Assembly: GCA_050011875.1 (NCBI GenBank)
Contig: JBEKIG010000004.1
Location: forward strand, 65,589-129,588
Reading direction: 5' to 3'
Length of the DNA: 64,000 bases
From: Nitrososphaeria archaeon
GTDB taxonomy: Archaea; Thermoproteota; Nitrososphaeria; JACIWG01
Shown here one piece after another: positions 36,357-57,078 of this stretch. The position numbers were made by a program, and so were the translations under genes. The notes beneath the pieces are model-generated. The model was not told the DNA's origin. It saw only the letters and a program-made list of their open reading frames with translations, and ran no database searches. The first letter of the stretch is position 1; every line of letters begins with the position of its first letter.

Positions 36357-37934
36357 TTATTCTATTTTACATTCATTATTTGCCAGTAGCGCCCAGCTGA
36401 ACTTTTCTCTTAGACTTTTAGAGTAGATACGCTCTATAGGTACTTTATTTTTTTTAGCGTATTCGGTAACCAGTCTCGGATCTATATAGGATGTCAGAGA
36501 TGTGCTTAGATTCCATTCCGAAGCATCCTTATAGAGTTGATATTCCAACGAAGTTTTTCGTGCAGACTGCTTAATCTTCTCAATCTTCTTTTCCATCTTC
36601 TCTTTTTCTTTTCCGCCAGCTTTATCCAGTTTAGCTAAGAGACCTATGTATTCGGTCTTTTTTCTCTCCATCTTTTCTTCTTTCTTCTTAAGTTTCTCTT
36701 CGAACTTATCCGGTAGCTTCCTTTTATGGTTCAGTTTCTTGGCTACAGCTAAGTTAACATATCTAAAACGAATCGTACTTTCAAATTCACCTTTATTGAA
36801 ACTCTGCCGAGTTCCATCGATAGCATTTTTGAGAGTGATTCCTGCTATCATTGTCCTAAAAGTCTTAGCTGAGACATCTGGGACAACTTCTTGCAGAAAT
36901 TTCGCGACCTTTTGGGAGTTCATTCCGTCAAATATCAGACCCTTCCCAGCATTGTTTTTGAATCTTTGAATGTTTTTGACGATCATGTTTGGAAGTACAA
37001 GCTCTCTCTGCCAATGCACATAATCTTTTCCAACAAAGTCAAGTAAAACCCTGTTGCCATCGATCTTTAGGTTGTCAGCCTTTAGAGTTGTGCAGCCGAC
37101 CGTCCCCATTTCTCCCGCGATCTTTTCATCACCTACCCTCATACCCGATTCTTTTATCAGGTGAACTACCGTAGCTACTTTCTTCCTATTCTCATCTTTT
37201 TGGTTAAAACTATCTCTGATATTCCTCTCAACCTCTTTAATCTTAGACTTTAACTCAATAGCCTTATCCCATTTCTTTATCTCCCTTTTCTGTCTGATGC
37301 TGCTGCTGGGAGAGAACCAGACGTACTTCATCTTACTATTTAGAGGATTCCTCCAGCATGCGATCCACATGCAGCTGCTCCTCCAGACGATTTCTTTCCA
37401 TCCTTTATCTAGTCCCTCGGGTTTTTCGCTTAAATTCAATGTTATATCCTCTCGCTTTATCTCCTTCTTCCATCTTCCCCTCAAAGGATTTCTTCCCTTA
37501 GAAGTGAAGAGGCCTGGAGGTTCAACTATCCAATTCTGTAAAACAATTCTTTTACCATCCACTATCGCATAGCCAAACTTTTCTTTCAGCGCATCCCTAA
37601 TCTTTTTCCGTTCATCCGCTGTTCTTTTCTTTTCTTCCCTTGTCAAAATCTCCTTCCTCTTCTTCTCGCGTTCAAGATAACCTGTTATATCAGTCCAATC
37701 GAAATCTTCGACCTTACAGGAACCTGCTATTCCCAACTTTTTAGCGAAGTCTTCAAAGAAGTTGGACACAAATAGTTGGTCATTAGCGTAGCTTGTACCA
37801 AACTTCTTAGCGAAGGCAACCGCCATCTGTTCAGCCTCCGAATCCAGCATAATAACCTGCCCTTTGTGCTTTAGTTTCAGTCCGAGTGGGAAGTGCGTTG
37901 GGACATATACGCCATGATGGATTAATTGTTTCAC
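36357..37934 (-). CDS. DNA topoisomerase IB (eukaryote-like type IB)
   Basis: Topo IB core plus the C-terminal active-site Tyr motif STSLTSYIDPR (compare eukaryotic SKxNYxDPR); 525 aa. Confidence 0.8.
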   Translation of the reverse strand: MKQLIHHGVYVPTHFPLGLKLKHKGQVIMLDSEAEQMAVAFAKKFGTSYANDQLFVSNFFEDFAKKLGIAGSCKVEDFDWTDITGYLEREKKRKEILTREEKKRTADERKKIRDALKEKFGYAIVDGKRIVLQNWIVEPPGLFTSKGRNPLRGRWKKEIKREDITLNLSEKPEGLDKGWKEIVWRSSCMWIACWRNPLNSKMKYVWFSPSSSIRQKREIKKWDKAIELKSKIKEVERNIRDSFNQKDENRKKVATVVHLIKESGMRVGDEKIAGEMGTVGCTTLKADNLKIDGNRVLLDFVGKDYVHWQRELVLPNMIVKNIQRFKNNAGKGLIFDGMNSQKVAKFLQEVVPDVSAKTFRTMIAGITLKNAIDGTRQSFNKGEFESTIRFRYVNLAVAKKLNHKRKLPDKFEEKLKKKEEKMERKKTEYIGLLAKLDKAGGKEKEKMEKKIEKIKQSARKTSLEYQLYKDASEWNLSTSLTSYIDPRLVTEYAKKNKVPIERIYSKSLREKFSWALLANNECKIE

Positions 37935-40224: not shown

Positions 40225-40440
40225 CTAGCATTACTCTCTGATATAGATCATTTTTGTTCAGACGTCGATATTTAAACAATTTCTTTTTAAAATCCATTTG
40301 ATTTATCAATTTTCAAGATTTAAAGCTACAGTAAGCATATTTGTTGCCTTCAGCCAAAAGAGTTGATATTGTTATATCCGCTTTGATGCTTCAACTGTTC
40401 TTCAAAGCGGTTTTTCTGCCCTTATGAAACATAAAGCAGA

Positions 40441-40782
40441 TTACATATTGCTTTTTAGCCCACCACTAAGATCCATAACTTCAACATAGACGTCTTTGGC
40501 TTCTTCCTTACTTTTGACTCCATAAACAACCATACTGCGTGTCTTCGTAAGACTTTTGCGTTTCCCTGCAGGCAGTTCGATTGGAACGATTTCAGAATTA
40601 GACACTCGAATAGAGTAGTGAGCGGAGAGTTCGCCCACTACTTGATTCATATTCAATAGCATAGGAGCATTCCTGTACATACTGAACTCGCATCTACATA
40701 GCTCCTGGATTTGAATTTCTTTATCATTAGATTTTTCTCGGCTGGCGAACACCAAATCTAGCACCCCATCATAATCGAGCAT
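40441..40782 (-). CDS. Candidate ThiS/MoaD-like beta-grasp sulfur-carrier protein with a C-terminal extension (ends ...DVYVEVMDLSGG-LKSNM)
   Basis: The C-terminal pattern D-x-hhhh-x-x-S-G-G is as in MoaD/SAMP/CysO (DEVAFFPPVTGG), but it is followed by 5 extra residues. It lies last in the E1-TusA-DsrE gene string. The true start may be the internal Met (MLLNMNQ...). Confidence 0.4.
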   Translation of the reverse strand: MLDYDGVLDLVFASREKSNDKEIQIQELCRCEFSMYRNAPMLLNMNQVVGELSAHYSIRVSNSEIVPIELPAGKRKSLTKTRSMVVYGVKSKEEAKDVYVEVMDLSGGLKSNM

Positions 40783-40863
40783 AGAGAGCTCTATTTACTA
40801 AACATATTGACATAAAAGAGCACGCAGCCATTTTACAACCTATGTTTCTTACAATTCTATTCT

Positions 40864-41232
40864 TTAAAAACAGATGACAGCATCTGCTTCAAGCGCTAAA
40901 TCGTTCAAGGTAGCAGCACCTACGATTCCAGCTTCAGAAATGAAGTCTCCACGTGGAATAGTCAGCAGTTGGCAGCTCTGTTCACACACCGTAAGCTTTA
41001 CTCCCGCCTTTATCGCCTGGTCCATTACTTCTTTGAGCGATGGGAAACCGCCTATTTTTATCTTTTCAGCTTCTCCCTTCTTGACTATCGTTACACCCTT
41101 TATTACGAAATAGATTGTCGCCTCTACGTTCATCATTTCTGCAGTGGCCGCTAGAATAAATGGCGCATATGTGCGTTCTGGTGTGTCAACACCGCTTGTT
41201 TGAACATACAGTATCTTTTTTTTCTCAGACAT
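40864..41232 (-). CDS. DsrE/DsrF (YchN)-like sulfur-relay protein
   Basis: DsrE-fold size (122 aa) and conserved-Cys region (CEQSC). Confidence 0.6.
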   Translation of the reverse strand: MSEKKKILYVQTSGVDTPERTYAPFILAATAEMMNVEATIYFVIKGVTIVKKGEAEKIKIGGFPSLKEVMDQAIKAGVKLTVCEQSCQLLTIPRGDFISEAGIVGAATLNDLALEADAVICF

Positions 41233-41256
41233 TTTCTCACCTCCAATTAATACTGT

Positions 41257-41493
41257 TTACTTCACCTTCCTGATTAAAAGCTGAACCCCTTTTCCTGCGG
41301 AATTCACGCCTAACAGCTCCTGTCCTAAATTCTTAACAAGACTTCTTATATCCGATTCCGCCGCCGGGTCATCAGCGAGCACTTCCAATACTTCGCCAAC
41401 CTCCATCTTGTCAAGTTCAATTCGAGTCCTAAACACAGGTTCCGGACAGTAGAAACCTATGCAATCCAATGTTCGGTCTACTTTTTTATTCAA
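41257..41493 (-). CDS. tusA: TusA-like sulfurtransferase
   Basis: LDCIGFYCPEP (CPxP motif); 78 aa. Confidence 0.85.
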   Translation of the reverse strand: MNKKVDRTLDCIGFYCPEPVFRTRIELDKMEVGEVLEVLADDPAAESDIRSLVKNLGQELLGVNSAGKGVQLLIRKVK

Positions 41494-41630
41494 AAAAGAC
41501 TCGACTCATCGATGATCAATTACAGTGTTATATTTATAACTTTTTATTTGAGTGTAATTATATATATGTAAGCATCCGCTCTCTGAAATAATCTAAAGTT
41601 CTAGGTCAAAATGCATTTAGTAGATTTCTT

Positions 41631-42647
41631 CTATTTAATATTCGAAAGTGGAACATTTAGTCCTTCGATTACTATTCTACTGTAAAGGTCATATGCTTTC
41701 TCTTCATTTTCTAATCCTTCAACGATCATTACCCCGCTCTTTAGGATACTTGCTTTAAGATCTGATCCTTTATCGAACGTTATACCTAAATCGGTTTTGA
41801 CTTTGATCTTAAACTTGCTCTTTTCCAAAAGTGAAAGAAGATCATTTATTTTCAAGGTTAGGTTTTTTCTTGGTGTTATCATGAAAACCCGTTTTCTTTT
41901 TCTACCACAGATTTCCGTAACCAGTTGTACTTGAAGAGGTTTCGGCGGGCGTAATGGTCTTGAGCCACATACGGGACAATCCTCTGCCTTTGATATATCG
42001 ATCGCCTGGAATGTCAAAGATCCAACGTCGCAGTAAAATAGTTTGTTCATAAGGTTAGGCGTCTGTCCGAGAATAATCCTTGCAGCCTCTGACACTTCAA
42101 TACTAGCTATAATGTTTATGATCGAAGGTTGGACTCCAACTACGGCACAGGTCGGTAGCATTTGATCCTCTAAGTTTCCTTGAAAACATTCTAGGCAGGC
42201 GGTTTTACCGGGTATTATCGTTGACACGCTTCCGTAGGTTGTAATTGCAGCACCAAAAATGTATGGTACATTATATGCCTGACAAGCCCTGTTTAATGCG
42301 TAGCGTGGAGCTATATGATCCAGGCCATCGACAACAACATCCATATCGCAGACAATGTCTCCAGCGTTTTCTGAGTTCAAGGATAAGGGGAGAGGTTCCA
42401 CCTCTATGTTGGGGTTATACTCGTGCAGCCTTTTCGCTGCGATCTCAACCTTAGGGTAGCCTATGAAGTCTACACCGTAGAGGGGTTGTCTCTGGAGATT
42501 AGAGAGCTCGATAATATCTTGATCGACCAAACGCAGGTGACCTACTCCCATTCCAGCTAGCAGCAGTGCAGCTTGAGAACCAAGTCCTCCAATTCCGACT
42601 ATGCAGACTCTAGCGTTTCTAAGTTTCAATTGCCCATTATAACCCAT
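41631..42647 (-). CDS. E1-like adenylyltransferase (MoeB/ThiF/UbaA family) with a C-terminal ~110-aa extra domain
   Basis: IVGIGGLGS nucleotide-binding motif; CLEC...CPVC zinc site; non-rhodanese C-terminal extension. Confidence 0.8.
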   Translation of the reverse strand: MGYNGQLKLRNARVCIVGIGGLGSQAALLLAGMGVGHLRLVDQDIIELSNLQRQPLYGVDFIGYPKVEIAAKRLHEYNPNIEVEPLPLSLNSENAGDIVCDMDVVVDGLDHIAPRYALNRACQAYNVPYIFGAAITTYGSVSTIIPGKTACLECFQGNLEDQMLPTCAVVGVQPSIINIIASIEVSEAARIILGQTPNLMNKLFYCDVGSLTFQAIDISKAEDCPVCGSRPLRPPKPLQVQLVTEICGRKRKRVFMITPRKNLTLKINDLLSLLEKSKFKIKVKTDLGITFDKGSDLKASILKSGVMIVEGLENEEKAYDLYSRIVIEGLNVPLSNIK

Positions 42648-42847
42648 ATCAGGTAGAACAATTTGACGGGAGTAGAATTCAAGTTCATTTTCTGAAAGCT
42701 TCTTTGCTTTAACCTTAGGCGTTTTCGTTCACCCCTCTAAAACTGTAACTTAGATGACCTTTTTCAAGAAAACCGATGTAAAACCGGTTTAATCGAGGAT
42801 TTCGGTACAGCATTCAAACTTCTTCCTATGCATTAAGGTCATCAACA

Positions 42848-44002
42848 TCAGGCTTTTATTGGCGAAATCTTCCTTAATTTTTTTACAGTTTTGGGCAAAG
42901 CTTCCAGGATGTAGTCCACATCTTCATCTGTCGTGTACCTTCCCAAAGATATTCTTAAGCTTCCGTGGATTTCTTCTGGTTTTAATCCAAGGGCTAGTAG
43001 CACGTGACTCGGTTCCCCTGAGCCTGATGAGCACGCGGAACCTGTGGACGCAGCTATCCCCTCATCGCTAAGAAGCATGATTAGGGATTCACCTTCGATA
43101 AAAGAAAATCTAAAATTGTTTATGTTTGGTAATCTCTTAGTAGGGTGTCCGTTCAGGTAGGTCCTTTCAATTTCTAACACGCCCTTGGTTAGACGATTGC
43201 TCAAAGCTGTCAGCCTCTGCGCTTCTGACACCATCTCCTCCTTTCTAATCTCTACAGCTTTAGCGAACCCCATTATACCCGGGACGTTCTCAGTGCTGGA
43301 CCTTAGACCGAATTCGTGGCCTCCTCCGTGCAGCAAGGGCTCAATTTTTACTCCTTTCTTTATGTAAAGTGCGCCAACCCCCTTCGGCCCATAAATCTTG
43401 TGGGCGTTAACCGTCATAAGGTCTATGTTCATTTCTTTAACGTCTATGGGAATTTTACCGAAGCTTTGAGCTGCGTCGGTGTGGAAGAAGGCGCCATATC
43501 CGTGACATAGCTTTCCAATTTCCTTCAACGGCTGTATGGTACCAATTTCGTTATTGCCATGTATAATGGAAACCAAGGAAACACCATTCTTCAAAGCTTT
43601 TTCAAGTTCCTCCAGATTTAATAGACCGTACTTGTCGACAGGTAGATAAGTTATTTTAAAGCCCTCTTTTTCCAGCCAAATAGCCGTATTTAGAACACTG
43701 TCATGCTCTATGGTAGATATGGCGATGTGCGTTTTACCATTTTCTTTATTGAGAGCAAAGCCTTTTAGGGTCAGGTTATTCGCTTCAGTAGCGCTTCCAG
43801 TAAAGATCAATTCTTCAGGCTCAGCTTTAACCATTCCAGCAACTGTCTTCCTCGCTTCATCAATGGATTTCCTCGCCTCTAACCCGAAGCTGTGAATAGA
43901 TGAAGCATTGCCGTAAATTTCGGTAAAATAAGGTCGCATGGTTTCAAGTACTCTGGGGTCTAAAGGCGTTGTCGCAGCATAGTCGACGTAGATTCTTCTC
44001 AT
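42848..44002 (-). CDS. iscS: Cysteine desulfurase (IscS/NifS class V aminotransferase)
   Basis: YVDYAATTP start, the PLP-Lys region (NAHKIYGPKG) and active-site SSGSACSS. Confidence 0.85.
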   Translation of the reverse strand: MRRIYVDYAATTPLDPRVLETMRPYFTEIYGNASSIHSFGLEARKSIDEARKTVAGMVKAEPEELIFTGSATEANNLTLKGFALNKENGKTHIAISTIEHDSVLNTAIWLEKEGFKITYLPVDKYGLLNLEELEKALKNGVSLVSIIHGNNEIGTIQPLKEIGKLCHGYGAFFHTDAAQSFGKIPIDVKEMNIDLMTVNAHKIYGPKGVGALYIKKGVKIEPLLHGGGHEFGLRSSTENVPGIMGFAKAVEIRKEEMVSEAQRLTALSNRLTKGVLEIERTYLNGHPTKRLPNINNFRFSFIEGESLIMLLSDEGIAASTGSACSSGSGEPSHVLLALGLKPEEIHGSLRISLGRYTTDEDVDYILEALPKTVKKLRKISPIKA

Positions 44003-44051
44003 GACTTATCCTCTTTTTTAGTATGTGGTCGATCCATTATTCAAGATTTAA

Positions 44052-45101
44052 TCACTCTTTCTTTAACCTAGATCGTGTAATATAACCGTTCACTTTGGCG
44101 CCAGCTGGAATCGAGGAAGTTATCCAGGAGTTTCCTCCTATGACAGCATTATCCCCTATGATTGTTTCGCCTCCGAGAATAGTTGCATCGGAATAAATAA
44201 CTACGTTGTTTCCAACTGTAGGATGTCTCTTACGCCCCCTTATGATCTGCCCTTTCTCGTCTTTGGGAAAACTTAGGGCACCTAAGGTTACACCTTGGTA
44301 GATTTTCACATTATCTCCGATCTCCGTAGTTTCTCCTATGACAACGCCTGTTCCATGGTCGATAAAGAAGTTTCTTCCGATCTTTGCTCCGGGGTGAATA
44401 TCGATACCTGTTTGAGAGTGGATATATTCGCTCATTATTCTAGGAATCATCGGAACGCCTCTTATGTAAAGCTCGTGAGTTATCCTGTAGGTTGCGATGG
44501 CAAGAACGCATGGATAACTTAGAATGATCTCGTCGGTGCTCTTAGCAGCAGGATCTCCATCGTAGGCTGCTTGAATGTCTCCACTTAGAAGGGTTCTTAT
44601 TTCAGGAATCTTCTCTAGAAGCTCCTTTACAACAACTTGTGCCCTTCTGTAGCAGACATCTTCAGGGCATTTTTTAATCCTTCGGCAAACGTACTTGAGA
44701 CTTTTCCCTACTTCATTAACGAGACGAAAATAGATCGAGTTTAAAGTGTTGCCTAGAAAGTACCTAACATTGGATTTTGTTACTTTCTTTTTACCCATGT
44801 AGCCAGGGAAAATTGTTGCTAAAAGGTCTTCTAGTACCTCGATGACTACCTGTTTCGATGGAAGATCTTTTCCTTCTAGGCTTTTCATTTCCCCATGGCT
44901 TTTGTAGCTTTCCATAATCTCTTCGACGAGCTTTGGTAAACCTTCCTCGACCCAATTTTCTTCCACTATCTTTTGTTCTTTAATAATCATCTCCAGCATT
45001 TGCTCTGGACTCCATGCGTAAGGCATCTCCTCGTTTCGCTCTTCTTCTTTAAAGCGAGATCGATCTGATGTAGACTTCATTTGCTTTCTCATCTTTATCA
45101 T
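44052..45101 (-). CDS. cysE: Serine O-acetyltransferase (hexapeptide-repeat LbH) with an N-terminal extension
   Basis: Left-handed beta-helix hexapeptide repeats ([14 protein letters not shown]...) plus the SAT N-terminal helical domain. Confidence 0.75.
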
Positions 45102-45249
45102 GAATACAATAGTACAACACTAAGATAGGGGTCTCCTATATCTTGATTATTTTTTGATTTAAGGGGATTAAAGACGTACTTCAAAACATTTACTGCACCT
45201 AAAGTTAAAACTTTTCTCATGACTTTCCTACTCATATTACGGCTGTGTG

Positions 45250-45268
45250 TTTATAACGCCGTTATAAA
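45250..45268. promoter_or_regulatory. Perfect palindrome TTTATAAC-GCC-GTTATAAA, ~150 bp upstream of the cysE start
   Basis: Seen directly in sequence. It shares the ATAAC-N3-GTTAT core with the sites at 46411 and 46804. Confidence 0.45.
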
Positions 45269-45449
45269 TCTTTTGTTTTTAAAACTTCATATAATTCAAA
45301 TAAGTAGTTATTTTTCACTATCTAATTCTCGTCTCTGCCATCTCATCTTTGGAAATTGCATTTTTTTTGCTCGTGATCGATTTAAGTTTTAGCTCAACTT
45401 TAAAAATCTTGGAATAGGGAGTGTGGCGGGATATCTTTCAACAGCGTCC

Positions 45450-46394
45450 TTAGGGTTCGTTCACTTCGGGTTCCTTAAACAGGGTGGTACTCAAATATCG
45501 TTCGCCAGTGTCTGGAAACACAACTATAATGAGCTTACCATCGTTTTCACGTCTCTTCGCTACTTCAAGGGCAGCGTAGCATGCTGCTCCAGATGAGATT
45601 CCAACGAGCAAACCCTCTTCCTTTGCGAGGCGTCTAGCAATGTTGAAGGCGTCATCGTCTCTGACCTGAAAGATTTCATCCACAATATCCCTACGGAAAA
45701 CGTCCGGTACAAAACCCGCTCCTATTCCCTGTATCTTATGGCGACCAGGCTGTCCACCTGAGAGAACAGGTGAGTTTAAGGGTTCAACTGCTATGATTTT
45801 TAGGCTGGGCTTTAACGGTTTGATATATTCGCCTATTCCTGTAACAGTGCCCCCTGTCCCAACTCCGCCAACTACTATGTCTACCTGCCCGTCTGTGTCA
45901 TCCCATATTTCTACTGCAGTTGTTTCCCGATGTATCTTTGGATTAGCGGGGTTCTTGAACTGCTGTGGTATGAATGAGTTTGGTGTGCTTGCTGCGACCT
46001 CTTCAGCCCTTTTGATCGCACCCTTCATCCCCTCAGCCCCAGGCGTGAGAATAAGTTCTGCACCATATGCTTTAAGGAGAGATCTTCGCTCAGCGCTCAT
46101 CGTATCAGGCATTGTCAATATGAGCTTGTAGCCTCTTACAGCCGCAACCATAGCGAGCCCAATACCAGTATTACCGCTGGTAGGTTCGATTATGATCGTA
46201 TCCTTATGGATCAATCCTTGTTTCTCAGCCTCTTGAATCATACTCAAGCATATCCTATCCTTCACACTTCCCCCAGGGTTTCTTGACTCGAGTTTCGCGA
46301 CAATTGTAGCTTTCAAGCCCTCTGTAATTCGGTTCAGTTTGATTAAGGGAGTCATACCGATGGTCTTTAACACATCATCGTAAATTTTTAGCAT
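45450..46394 (-). CDS. cysK: Cysteine synthase / O-acetylserine (or O-phosphoserine) sulfhydrylase, PLP-dependent
   Basis: [24 protein letters not shown]-terminus, PLP-Lys region (SVKDR) and GTGGT loop. I placed the start at the internal ATG (46394), because the track's GTG at 46416-18 lies inside the upstream palindrome. Confidence 0.85.
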
Positions 46395-46410
46395 ACACCT
46401 TAAGTTATGG

Positions 46411-46428
46411 TATAACACTGTTATAAAT
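46411..46428. promoter_or_regulatory. Palindrome TATAAC-ACT-GTTATAAAT, 17-34 bp upstream of the cysK ATG (promoter position)
   Basis: Seen directly in sequence. It overlaps a TATA-like element. Confidence 0.5.
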
Positions 46429-46470
46429 CTTTGTAGATTGTCTTGTTTTTAACCAGTAAATGGGAACTCA

Positions 46471-46791
46471 CTATTTTATTAAGGTAAACACAAGGGTGCA
46501 AATACCACATAGGTCTACTTCTACTTTCTTTGACTTTTTTGCATCAGCTATTTTTCCTGCTTCTGAACCAATAATTTTTATTATTTCCTTATTAGCTAAC
46601 AGTTTTTTAGTCAATTTTCCACCCCTCTTTGAACTAATATATTGACTAACAGCAGCCTGCGTTATTCCAAGTACCTTAGCTGCATGCGATTGGGAGAAAC
46701 CGTGTTCTTCAACAAGTTCCTTTGCGATAAGTCCTCTTATGGTTGGAAGGATGTATTTTGTCGCTCTCTCACATTTCGGCCTGACAACCAT
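46471..46791 (-). CDS. Small HTH DNA-binding transcriptional regulator
   Basis: Predicted helix-turn-helix FSQSHAAKVLGITQAAVSQYIS; 106 aa; lies immediately upstream of cysK. Confidence 0.6.
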   Translation of the reverse strand: MVVRPKCERATKYILPTIRGLIAKELVEEHGFSQSHAAKVLGITQAAVSQYISSKRGGKLTKKLLANKEIIKIIGSEAGKIADAKKSKKVEVDLCGICTLVFTLIK

Positions 46792-46803
46792 TATTTTGAA
46801 TTA

Positions 46804-46820
46804 ACTTAACACTGTTATTA
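46804..46820. promoter_or_regulatory. Palindrome CTTAAC-ACT-GTTATTAA, 13-29 bp upstream of the HTH regulator start
   Basis: Seen directly in sequence. A third copy of the ATAAC-N3-GTTAT-like site. Confidence 0.45.
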
Positions 46821-47951: not shown

Positions 47952-48043
47952 TGGGGCCAGTGGGATTCGAACCCACGCTCACCAGCGATCTGGGCTACAT
48001 GCTCCCCAGGCTGGCATCTTTGACCAAGCTGGACGATGACCCC
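47952..48043 (-). tRNA. tRNA gene (~92 nt) with a probable ~16-nt intron in the anticodon loop; anticodon possibly GGG (Pro), uncertain
   Basis: The reverse complement gives a 7-bp acceptor stem GGGGUCA/UGGCCCC, T-arm GUGGG-UUCGAAU-CCCAC, a 5-nt variable loop, and CCAGC...GCUGG flanking a 23-nt segment that is too long for a plain anticodon loop. No CCA is encoded. Confidence 0.7.
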
Positions 48044-56905: not shown

Positions 56906-56992
56906 GCCGGGATGGCAGAGTGGACCAATGCGCAGGCCTTGAGAGCCTGTCACTCCTTGTGGGTGGCGTGGGTTCAAATCCCACCCCCGGCG
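56906..56992 (+). tRNA. tRNA-Ser (anticodon UGA), class II with a long variable arm
   Basis: Acceptor GCCGGG(A)/CCCCGGC, anticodon stem CAGGC/GCCUG with loop CUUGAGA, variable stem-loop CACUC-CUUGU-GGGUG, and T-arm GUGGG-UUCAAAU-CCCAC. Confidence 0.8.
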
Positions 56993-57078
56993 CTATTTCA
57001 CGTCTTAGTACATCAGAATTGAAACTTAAAATGGGCGAGAAAGCTTAAATCTTTCTACCCATATCTAATACGGTTTAA

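Follow-up and report, generated by a model that had tools for sequence, protein, structure and literature searches.

In Escherichia coli, the sulfur relays that run through IscS and TusA hand a persulfide to an adenylated acceptor, as in the path from IscS through TusA to adenylated MoaD on MoeB; a rhodanese domain is present on MOCS3 (PMC5372717). A comparable set of genes is found in a 64-kb stretch of archaeal DNA (contig JBEKIG010000004.1 of assembly GCA_050011875.1, positions 65,589 to 129,588), which is called the window below. The genes lie on the minus strand between positions 40441 and 46820 of the window. Like the E. coli relays, this cluster includes a cysteine desulfurase, TusA, a protein of the DsrE/TusD family, and an E1 of the MoeB/ThiF type that lacks a rhodanese domain. 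Unlike in E. coli, cysK and cysE belong to the gene cluster, the genes appear to have a common operator, there is one DsrE-like gene rather than TusBCD, and TusE/DsrC and MnmA are missing. In addition, the window E1 has an extra C-terminal domain that resembles the TATA-binding protein (TBP), a free paralogue of this domain is encoded by a small open reading frame (ORF) beside the TusA and DsrE-like genes, and there is no MoaD or ThiS gene nearby. The locus is a variation on known sulfur relays, and what is noteworthy is the detached paralogue of the E1 C-terminal domain and the conserved operator.

C-terminal rhodanese domains are found in the E1 enzymes MoeZ and Uba4. The CysO-CysM-Mec+-MoeZ system of Mycobacterium tuberculosis resembles the window in combining an E1-type enzyme with a pyridoxal phosphate (PLP) beta-replacement enzyme of the CysK/CysM superfamily. 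However, the window has no CysO-like carrier and no Mec+/JAB protease, its PLP enzyme is nearest to CysK1 and not to CysM, and the C-terminal domain of its E1 is TBP-like and not a rhodanese. In Wolinella, the HcyS, HcyF, HcyD, Sir, and MetY proteins are responsible for a thiocarboxylate-dependent synthesis of homocysteine. The logic of the Streptomyces MetM/MetO/Mec/MoeZ system is matched by many loci elsewhere that contain an E1 of this family, described below as layout A (bioRxiv 10.1101/2024.10.14.618325). What the window has in common with layout A is limited to the E1 family, TusA, and the operator, and it lacks the ThrC-like enzyme, the carrier, and sulfite reductase.

The Haloferax enzyme UbaA is a single rhodanese-less E1 of the MoeB/ThiF type that serves several ubiquitin-like carriers, the SAMPs, in molybdenum cofactor synthesis, tRNA thiolation, and protein conjugation. 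UbaA has no TBP-like C-terminal domain. With the corresponding NCBIfam model, the E1 of the window reaches 170 bits, far under the cut-off of 450, and there is no SAMP gene in the window. The architecture of the window E1 is that of the MoeB homologues with a C-terminal TBP domain described by Brindefalk et al. in 2013, for which the role was not known and neither a function nor a free-standing form linked to sulfur was reported (PMC3597702). Beyond that description, we find a conserved cysteine in the domain (69 of 76 sequences), a detached paralogue that is always downstream of TusA and DsrE-like genes, and a fusion to a protein resembling 3'-phosphoadenosine 5'-phosphosulfate (PAPS) reductase. 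The way in which rhodanese-less E1 enzymes acquire sulfur for protein thiocarboxylates is only partly understood. The locus links the TBP-like domain to TusA and DsrE by way of the detached paralogue, and the domain has a conserved cysteine; the two findings together provide a candidate, open to testing, for the sulfur-acceptor step that is missing.

The small ORF is, judging from sequence comparisons, a free-standing copy of the E1 tail domain and not a ubiquitin-like sulfur carrier. An initial annotation of this DNA gave the end of the protein correctly as ...VMDLSGGLKSNM and proposed from its GG that it was a carrier with a beta-grasp fold. The GG is not C-terminal, and it is found in the window copy only. 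Four homologues have GE, GE, TS, and TG in its place, followed by unrelated tails; they are P0002 (75% identical), P0126 (70%), P0123 (54%), and the C-terminal 90 residues of P0124. Only one relative came from a word-indexed search in a set of 5.8 billion proteins, and the family was assembled by exhaustive phmmer and profile searches. In Pfam and NCBIfam the small ORF matches neither ThiS, MoaD, or Urm1 nor any other family, and a hidden Markov model (HMM) built from 27 real carriers that adjoin this E1 family did not match it even at E<10. Structure prediction with AlphaFold2 from an alignment of five sequences gave one usable, confident model, which has a TBP-like fold with a single TBP repeat and not a beta-grasp fold; a prediction from two sequences (predicted local distance difference test score of 33) was discarded. 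When the family profile was compared with the PDB, TBPs ranked first, although the sequence signal was weak (1mp9, E 0.005). Alignment of the small-ORF family with the E1 C-terminal domain family by hhalign gave a probability of 96.4% (E 1.2e-9, 80 columns), and the invariant cysteine of the small ORF, C29, aligned with the cysteine of the E[IV]CGR motif in the E1 domain, which is C272 in the E1 of 363 residues. When all 1.5 Mb of fetched loci were translated in six frames and searched with the small-ORF HMM, it matched only its own homologues and E1 C-termini. Among the latter, L082 had the best match (E 2e-16), followed by L057 (E 1e-12), and the window E1 was matched with an E value of 4e-5. 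The hhalign and HMM matches indicate that the small ORF arose as a paralogue of the E1 C-terminal TBP-like domain and is detached from it. This corrects an attractive but wrong annotation, in which a GG-containing ORF is taken for a ubiquitin-like carrier.

The small ORF is a real gene. It follows the E1, TusA, and DsrE-like genes in L084 and L085 and the TusA and DsrE-like genes in L086. The triad of TusA, DsrE-like protein, and small ORF is kept down to 56% identity, and the ratio of nonsynonymous to synonymous substitution rates (dN/dS) in the small ORF is 0.20 across the deepest comparison. The invariant core of the family starts at an LCxxEF motif, and its cysteine is invariant among the free-standing proteins. 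The ATG of the window copy is not conserved among the homologues. A match to an ankyrin protein, P0125, was dropped as a repeat artefact.

A third sulfur/adenylate context of the TBP-like domain is provided by P0124 (L146, 853-2481). This is an archaeal PAPS-reductase-like protein of 542 amino acids and of the PRK13795 type. Its C-terminal domain is homologous to the small ORF (39% identity) and is followed by a CVGCG motif.

The window E1 is an adenylyltransferase of the MoeB/ThiF type, and its C-terminal domain also resembles TBP. It matches PF00899 (ThiF) with an E value of 6e-66 and PRK12475 ('MoeB/ThiF family') over its full length, and its matches in the PDB include E. coli ThiF (E 1e-42) and MoeB (E 1e-40). 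The nucleotide loop (GxGxxG) and both zinc motifs (CxxC) are present, and 76 of 76 members of the family have all four zinc cysteines as well as the cysteine of the crossover loop. The homologues are about 363 residues long, including about 100 extra residues at the C-terminus. A single-sequence query with these 100 residues found no solved relative, and with a profile TBPs came first (1mp9, E 8e-4).

The N-terminal segment of the window E1 is probably translated from an ACG codon. As listed, the ORF misses 25 residues found at the N-terminus of the family, because the ancestral ATG is now ACG (42720-42722). The 94%-identical protein P0003 has ATG at this position, while the ACG is also found in L084 (about 320-335) and L085, whose E1 proteins are 91% identical to that of the window. 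A Shine-Dalgarno sequence, GAGGGGTGA, is present at 42729-42737, 6 nt upstream of the ACG, and is preceded by an in-frame TGA. The 25 codons from the ACG to the first ATG encode the conserved segment ELEFYSRQIVL, so that the YSRQ part is in frame yet upstream of the first canonical start. Their dN/dS is 0.23, and purifying selection on these upstream codons suggests that translation starts at the non-canonical ACG. The possibility that loss of the ATG has made the E1 a pseudogene is unlikely, since the ACG is common to a lineage of 91%-identical proteins and purifying selection acts on the codons upstream of the first ATG.

The neighborhoods of the E1 family suggest that it activates GG carriers in other genomes. 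They were examined in the 80 best-matching E1 loci from a scan with one genome per species, and genes within 5 kb of the E1 were clustered. Most of these loci are from Bathyarchaeia, and the others are from Brockarchaeota, Nitrososphaerales, Chloroflexi, and other groups. About 27 loci have a ThiS-family protein ending in GG near the E1, 16 have a JAB protease directly downstream of it, 13 have sulfite reductase near it, and 12 have TusA. Further recurring neighbors are DsrE-like proteins, IscS, IscU, FdhD, MobA-like proteins, and NadA. The carriers are of two types, one following a ThrC-like PLP enzyme of about 420 residues on the same strand, and the other Urm1-like and divergent from the E1. 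In layout A, which is found around the E1, located at about 10 kb, in L013, L017, L021, L023, L033, and L068, genes for IscU, IscS, TusA, and a DsrE-like protein face genes for a ThrC-like enzyme, ThiS, a homoserine-dehydrogenase-like protein, the E1, sulfite reductase, and TusA. The Bathyarchaeia clusters with ThrC-like, ThiS, E1, sulfite reductase, and TusA genes look like a MetM/MetO-type thiocarboxylate route to homocysteine, by analogy with the Streptomyces system. Layout B consists of IscS, NadA, a divergent ThiS, the E1, JAB, sulfite reductase, and TusA.

Several parts of the window cluster recur in these loci. IscU, IscS, TusA, and DsrE-like genes are beside the E1 in L013, L017, L023, L037, and L042, and IscS adjoins the E1 in L012, L084, and L085. 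The order in L084 and L085 is IscS, E1, TusA, DsrE-like, small ORF, and in L020 it is TusA, DsrE-like, IscS, IscU, other genes, and E1. L004 and L008 also have the triad of CysK, serine acetyltransferase, and IscS, with 70-80% identity; in L008 it is followed by NadA, ThiS, and E1, and in L004 it is divergent from the E1 and accompanied by a helix-turn-helix (HTH) gene.

Two side features of these loci concern the carriers and layout A. Urm1-like ThiS proteins in L010 (1622-1984) and L053 (7151-7504, minus strand) run 19-26 residues past a GGG and have an adjoining JAB gene. Tails of this kind next to a JAB gene are consistent with proteolytic maturation of the carrier. The layout A clusters also face a small cysteine-rich ORF that resembles a zinc ribbon.

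A palindrome, TATAAC-N3-GTTATA, marks a conserved sulfur regulon, and this conclusion is well supported. The window contains two perfect copies, both inside the cluster, and none of 100 shuffles of the window gave any. Both sit in an identical element, AAAGATTTATAAC, which resembles a B recognition element and TATA box (BRE/TATA). The copy at tusA has two mismatches in the window and one in its relative in L084. The 80 related loci (1.15 Mb) contain 30 perfect palindromes where 0.15 are expected, which is about 200-fold, and 74 with one mismatch or none where 5.1 are expected. Near the E1, 51 of 61 sites lie outside ORFs. The palindrome is upstream of 14 of 23 ThrC-like genes, 8 of 8 DsrE-like genes, 8 of 14 sulfite reductase genes, and 7 of 13 CysK-like genes. 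It is also found upstream of E1, ThiS, HTH, and YeiH-type transporter genes, while only 11 of 685 other genes have it. A generic archaeal TATA box was considered as an explanation of the palindrome and rejected in view of its low frequency upstream of non-sulfur genes and of the restriction of the two perfect copies to the cluster. A literature search on the motif gave nothing relevant. The sites span loci L004 to L145, from Bathyarchaeia and their relatives.

The HTH protein encoded in the cluster probably represses its transcription units through the palindrome, which overlaps the TATA element. The binding of this protein is predicted from the position and distribution of the motif. The palindrome is immediately upstream of the HTH gene in five of five cases (the window, L004, L020, L023, and L100), and the homologues in the latter four loci adjoin sulfur genes. 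The protein has a cysteine in a PxCE motif (C7) and a C-terminal CxxC (C95, C98), and this pattern is common to the window protein and the three aligned homologues (L004, L020, L023). The genes of the cluster are probably co-regulated. To our knowledge, the palindrome and the cysteine-containing regulator would be the first sulfur regulon to be defined in Bathyarchaeia, which are uncultured. The palindrome could be used to predict sulfur-assimilation genes in metagenome-assembled genomes (MAGs), including those of MetM/MetO-like homocysteine pathways.

The CysK enzyme of the cluster appears from profile and structure matches to be an ordinary sulfide-dependent O-acetylserine sulfhydrylase A and not a CysM-like enzyme. 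The initial annotation had suggested that it was fed by a thiocarboxylate in the manner of CysM, and the evidence goes against this. The protein scores 476.6 bits with TIGR01139 (cut-off 351) and falls under the cut-offs of the CysM models. In the PDB it is most similar to canonical O-acetylserine sulfhydrylases, M. tuberculosis CysK1 among them (2q3b, E 5e-132), and CysM is absent from the top 60. The SVKDR and TSGNTG motifs can be read in the translation. CysM uses O-phosphoserine and CysO as substrates (PMC11361707), while the serine acetyltransferase gene next to cysK points to O-acetylserine and not O-phosphoserine. Furthermore, returning sulfur that IscS has taken from cysteine to cysteine would be a futile cycle, which argues against its delivery to CysK.

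The reading that we favor, with a probability of about 0.55, is that this is a sulfur-mobilization cluster of a Bathyarchaeia-like archaeon, made up of several short transcription units with one operator and encoding a relay to an unlinked carrier. From their family assignments, CysE and CysK would produce cysteine from serine, acetyl-CoA, and sulfide, and the IscS/NifS-type desulfurase would transfer cysteine sulfur to a protein persulfide. TusA and the DsrE-like protein would carry this persulfide, as suggested by the E. coli paths from IscS through TusA to TusD and to MoaD. The neighbors of the E1 family suggest that the E1 would adenylate a ThiS/MoaD/Urm1-type GG carrier encoded outside the window and that the persulfide would convert the adenylate to a thiocarboxylate for cofactor, tRNA, or homocysteine synthesis. 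More speculatively, the cysteine-bearing TBP-like domain of the E1 could be a persulfide acceptor or docking module at the position of the rhodanese, and the small ORF could be an extra relay protein or adaptor working with TusA and the DsrE-like protein. The HTH protein would repress all of the units at the common operator. A relay from IscS through TusA and DsrE to an E1-activated carrier is a reasonable model at the level of the E1 family. The initial annotation proposed such a relay, and this part of it is supported at the family level by the GG carriers, JAB proteases, TusA, DsrE-like proteins, and IscS near the E1 elsewhere; the assignment of the small ORF as the carrier is not. A wider claim is that the TBP-like cysteine domain is an unrecognized sulfur-transfer module that replaces the rhodanese in a widespread class of E1, acts as a free relay protein, and is fused to a PAPS-reductase-like enzyme, and that the set is governed in Bathyarchaeia and their relatives by a cysteine-containing HTH repressor, possibly sensing sulfide or through an iron-sulfur (Fe-S) cluster, at TATAAC-N3-GTTATA. 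Taken jointly, these statements are tentative and rather unlikely to hold in full.

Several observations weigh against the favored reading. The operon structure, the binding of the regulator, and the sulfur transfers are all predicted. No carrier gene was found in the window: HMMs for ThiS-type carriers and JAB proteases gave nothing below E=1 in its six frames. The window has no gene for a JAMM/MPN protease, which the initial annotation suggested seeking elsewhere in the genome as a trimmer of the tail. MoaE and thiolation enzymes are missing from the window too. When metagenomes were scanned with the Urm1-like carrier that the closest relatives have, 59 loci were obtained, and the contig of the window was not among them. 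The annotation also treated the whole relay as one unit, but the full eight-gene arrangement occurs in 0 of the 80 best E1 loci, and cysK or cysE is linked to the E1 in four loci only. The E1 lacks a canonical start codon. The cysteine of its C-terminal domain is replaced in 7 of 76 members, by His (5), Thr (1), or Tyr (1), which argues against an obligatory persulfide role (the genes are in L007, L014, L015, L019, L029, L036, and L040). Only one of five AlphaFold2 models of the small ORF is confident. Finally, the window copy of the small ORF has a dN/dS of 0.6-0.76 relative to close relatives, indicating relaxed selection, and its tail has been shortened by deletion.

An alternative is that the cluster is a co-regulated sulfur island without a fixed relay. 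CysK and CysE would make cysteine, IscS would have a general function in Fe-S and thio-cofactor synthesis, the E1, TusA, and DsrE-like proteins would separately serve molybdenum cofactor synthesis or tRNA thiolation, and the small ORF would be a decaying duplicate. Gene order is shuffled among the relatives, most E1 loci have no cysK, cysE, or iscS, and several gaps of 125-348 nt in the window, each with its own promoter-like element, point to separate units; the relaxed and shortened small ORF also fits. However, the IscS, TusA, DsrE-like, and E1 genes recur together despite rearrangement, the triad that includes the small ORF has been preserved under selection, and E. coli provides a precedent in the direct transfer from IscS through TusA to MoeB/MoaD (PMC5372717). 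We consider the island to be possible but unlikely. The CysO-CysM-like scheme, in which the small ORF is a beta-grasp carrier whose LKSNM is trimmed after the GG and which is thiocarboxylated by the E1 to feed CysK, is very improbable. It would account for a GG near the C-terminus of a protein encoded two genes from an E1 whose family pairs elsewhere with GG carriers, some with post-GG tails and an adjoining JAB. It conflicts with the failure of Pfam, NCBIfam, and family-carrier models to match the small ORF, the absence of the GG from all four homologues, the predicted TBP-like fold and homology to the E1 domain, the sulfhydrylase A type of CysK without CysM among its best matches, and the futility of the resulting cycle.

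In sulfur-oxidizing Sulfolobales, TusA and DsrE3 handle inorganic sulfane sulfur. TusA, the DsrE-like protein, and the small protein of the window might similarly handle thiosulfate or polysulfide and feed environmental sulfur to the E1 or CysK. In favor of this, the nearest solved relative of the DsrE-like protein, 3mc3, is a structural-genomics entry labeled only as DsrE/DsrF-like, the E1 in relatives often adjoins sulfite reductase and a YeiH-type putative sulfate exporter, and an enzyme resembling PAPS reductase carries the small domain as a fusion. But the window has no Hdr-like, Sox, sulfite reductase, or transporter gene, while IscS is within the cluster and adjoins TusA and DsrE-like genes in relatives, so we regard this role as improbable. 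A different function of the TBP-like domain, whether free or fused to the E1 or the PAPS-reductase-like protein, would be to bind nucleic acids and target adenylate-forming enzymes to tRNA or DNA for thiolation. TBP and RNase HIII's N-terminal domain do bind nucleic acids, although many TBP-fold domains are platforms for protein interactions (PMC3597702). Also in favor of this function, a ThiI/MnmA-like PP-loop gene adjoins the E1 in L004, L012, and L031, and the conserved cysteine is replaced in seven E1 proteins. In contrast, the neighborhood of the E1 is most strongly conserved for protein carriers and PLP enzymes and not for tRNA enzymes, and the cysteine does not vary among the free-standing proteins and is found in 69 of 76 E1 proteins. 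Nucleic acid targeting seems more improbable still than the handling of sulfane sulfur.

The remaining assignments in the cluster come from Pfam and NCBIfam profile matches (Table 1). The initial annotation listed nine minus-strand genes; their strand, order, and coordinates are right, but only eight were named, and the ninth could only be the ORF of 40-45 residues between cysK and cysE. The families that it gave for the HTH, CysK, serine acetyltransferase, IscS, E1, TusA, and DsrE-like genes all agree with the profiles, and the domain assignments and the HTH gene likewise support its description of a sulfur-related neighborhood with an adjacent regulator. The serine acetyltransferase scores 158 bits with the EpsC-type model (cut-off 150) and 171 bits with the cysE model, which is under the cut-off of 211. 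It has a long N-terminal extension and lacks the C-terminal Ile, and the copies that adjoin cysK and iscS in L004 and L008 are 70-80% identical. The desulfurase matches PF00266 (Aminotran_5; E 1e-89) and scores 516 bits with the NifS model, slightly under the cut-off of 531, and 454 bits with IscS models; HK and GSACSS motifs can be seen in its translation. TusA scores 77 bits with PF01206 (cut-off 28.6). The YCPEP sequence is part of the protein if the TTG start is taken, and the full-length protein, N-terminus included, is 91-92% identical in L084-L086. The DsrE-like protein scores 67 bits with PF02635 (cut-off 22.7), and no NCBIfam subfamily model is above its cut-off (DsrE2, 48 bits against 210). 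Its best PDB match is 3mc3 (E 1e-18), and Cys83 or Cys87 may correspond to the active-site Cys78 of DsrE and TusD.

Table 1. Features of the sulfur cluster and their positions in the 64-kb window
Feature	Position	Strand	Remarks
HTH regulator, 106 amino acids	46471..46791	-	Weak HTH_3/DUF134/Cro (XRE-like) matches
Degenerate palindrome, 3 mismatches	46805..46819		14 nt upstream of regulator ATG
Perfect palindrome TATAAC-N3-GTTATA	46411..46425		Overlaps BRE/TATA-like AAAGATTTATAA; 17 nt upstream of cysK ATG; candidate operator
CysK, O-acetylserine sulfhydrylase A, 314 amino acids from ATG	45450..46394	-	ORF reaches GTG at 46418
Second perfect palindrome	45252..45266		Identical AAAGATTTATAAC left flank; 17 nt upstream of short-ORF ATG
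Short ORF, 45 amino acids (40 as called)	45098..45235	-	Stop overlaps cysE start
Serine O-acetyltransferase, 349 amino acids	44052..45101	-	Hexapep repeats; EpsC-type serine acetyltransferase model
IscS/NifS-type cysteine desulfurase, 384 amino acids	42848..44002	-	Aminotran_5 and NifS model
Long MoeB/ThiF-type E1	41631..42722 (listed ORF 41631-42647)	-	ThiF and C-terminal TBP-like domain
Palindrome, 2 mismatches	41518..41532		25 nt upstream of tusA TTG
TusA, 78 amino acids, TTG start	41257..41493	-	PF01206, CPEP motif
DsrE-like protein, 122 amino acids	40864..41232	-	PF02635; Cys83 and Cys87
Small ORF, 113 amino acids, ends ...VMDLSGGLKSNM	40441..40782	-	Free-standing TBP-like domain, LCxxEF cysteine

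The short ORF before cysE could encode a leader peptide, or it may be spurious. It lies in the 348-nt spacer between cysK and cysE, which L004 and L008 lack because their cysK and cysE genes abut. Neither a riboswitch nor a leader RNA was detected in this spacer with Rfam, whose only hits in the window were two tRNAs located elsewhere. One is a tRNA-Pro(GGG) gene at 47952-48043 on the minus strand, which at 92 nt is unusually long and may contain an intron, and the other is a tRNA-Ser(TGA) gene at 56906-56993.

The rest of the window contains housekeeping genes, and the sulfite reductase and ThrC-like genes found in E1-family loci are absent from its 64 kb. The NCBI record, a metagenomic contig of 492 kb, is named 'Nitrososphaeria archaeon', and the nearest relatives of the E1 are found in Bathyarchaeia MAGs. 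The host is an archaeon, and the contig can be assigned to a Bathyarchaeia-like MAG. In relatives of the window, a UbiE-type methyltransferase gene on the opposite strand is present between the small ORF and an HD-domain gene (L003, 509-949; L084, 2701-3327). The window keeps only about 67 nt of the 3' end of this gene (40321-40387), a sign that it was deleted recently. Downstream of the cluster, at a distance of about 2.5 kb (36357-37934, minus strand), there is a gene for a eukaryote-type topoisomerase IB with Topoisom_I_N, Topoisom_I, and Topo_C_assoc domains.

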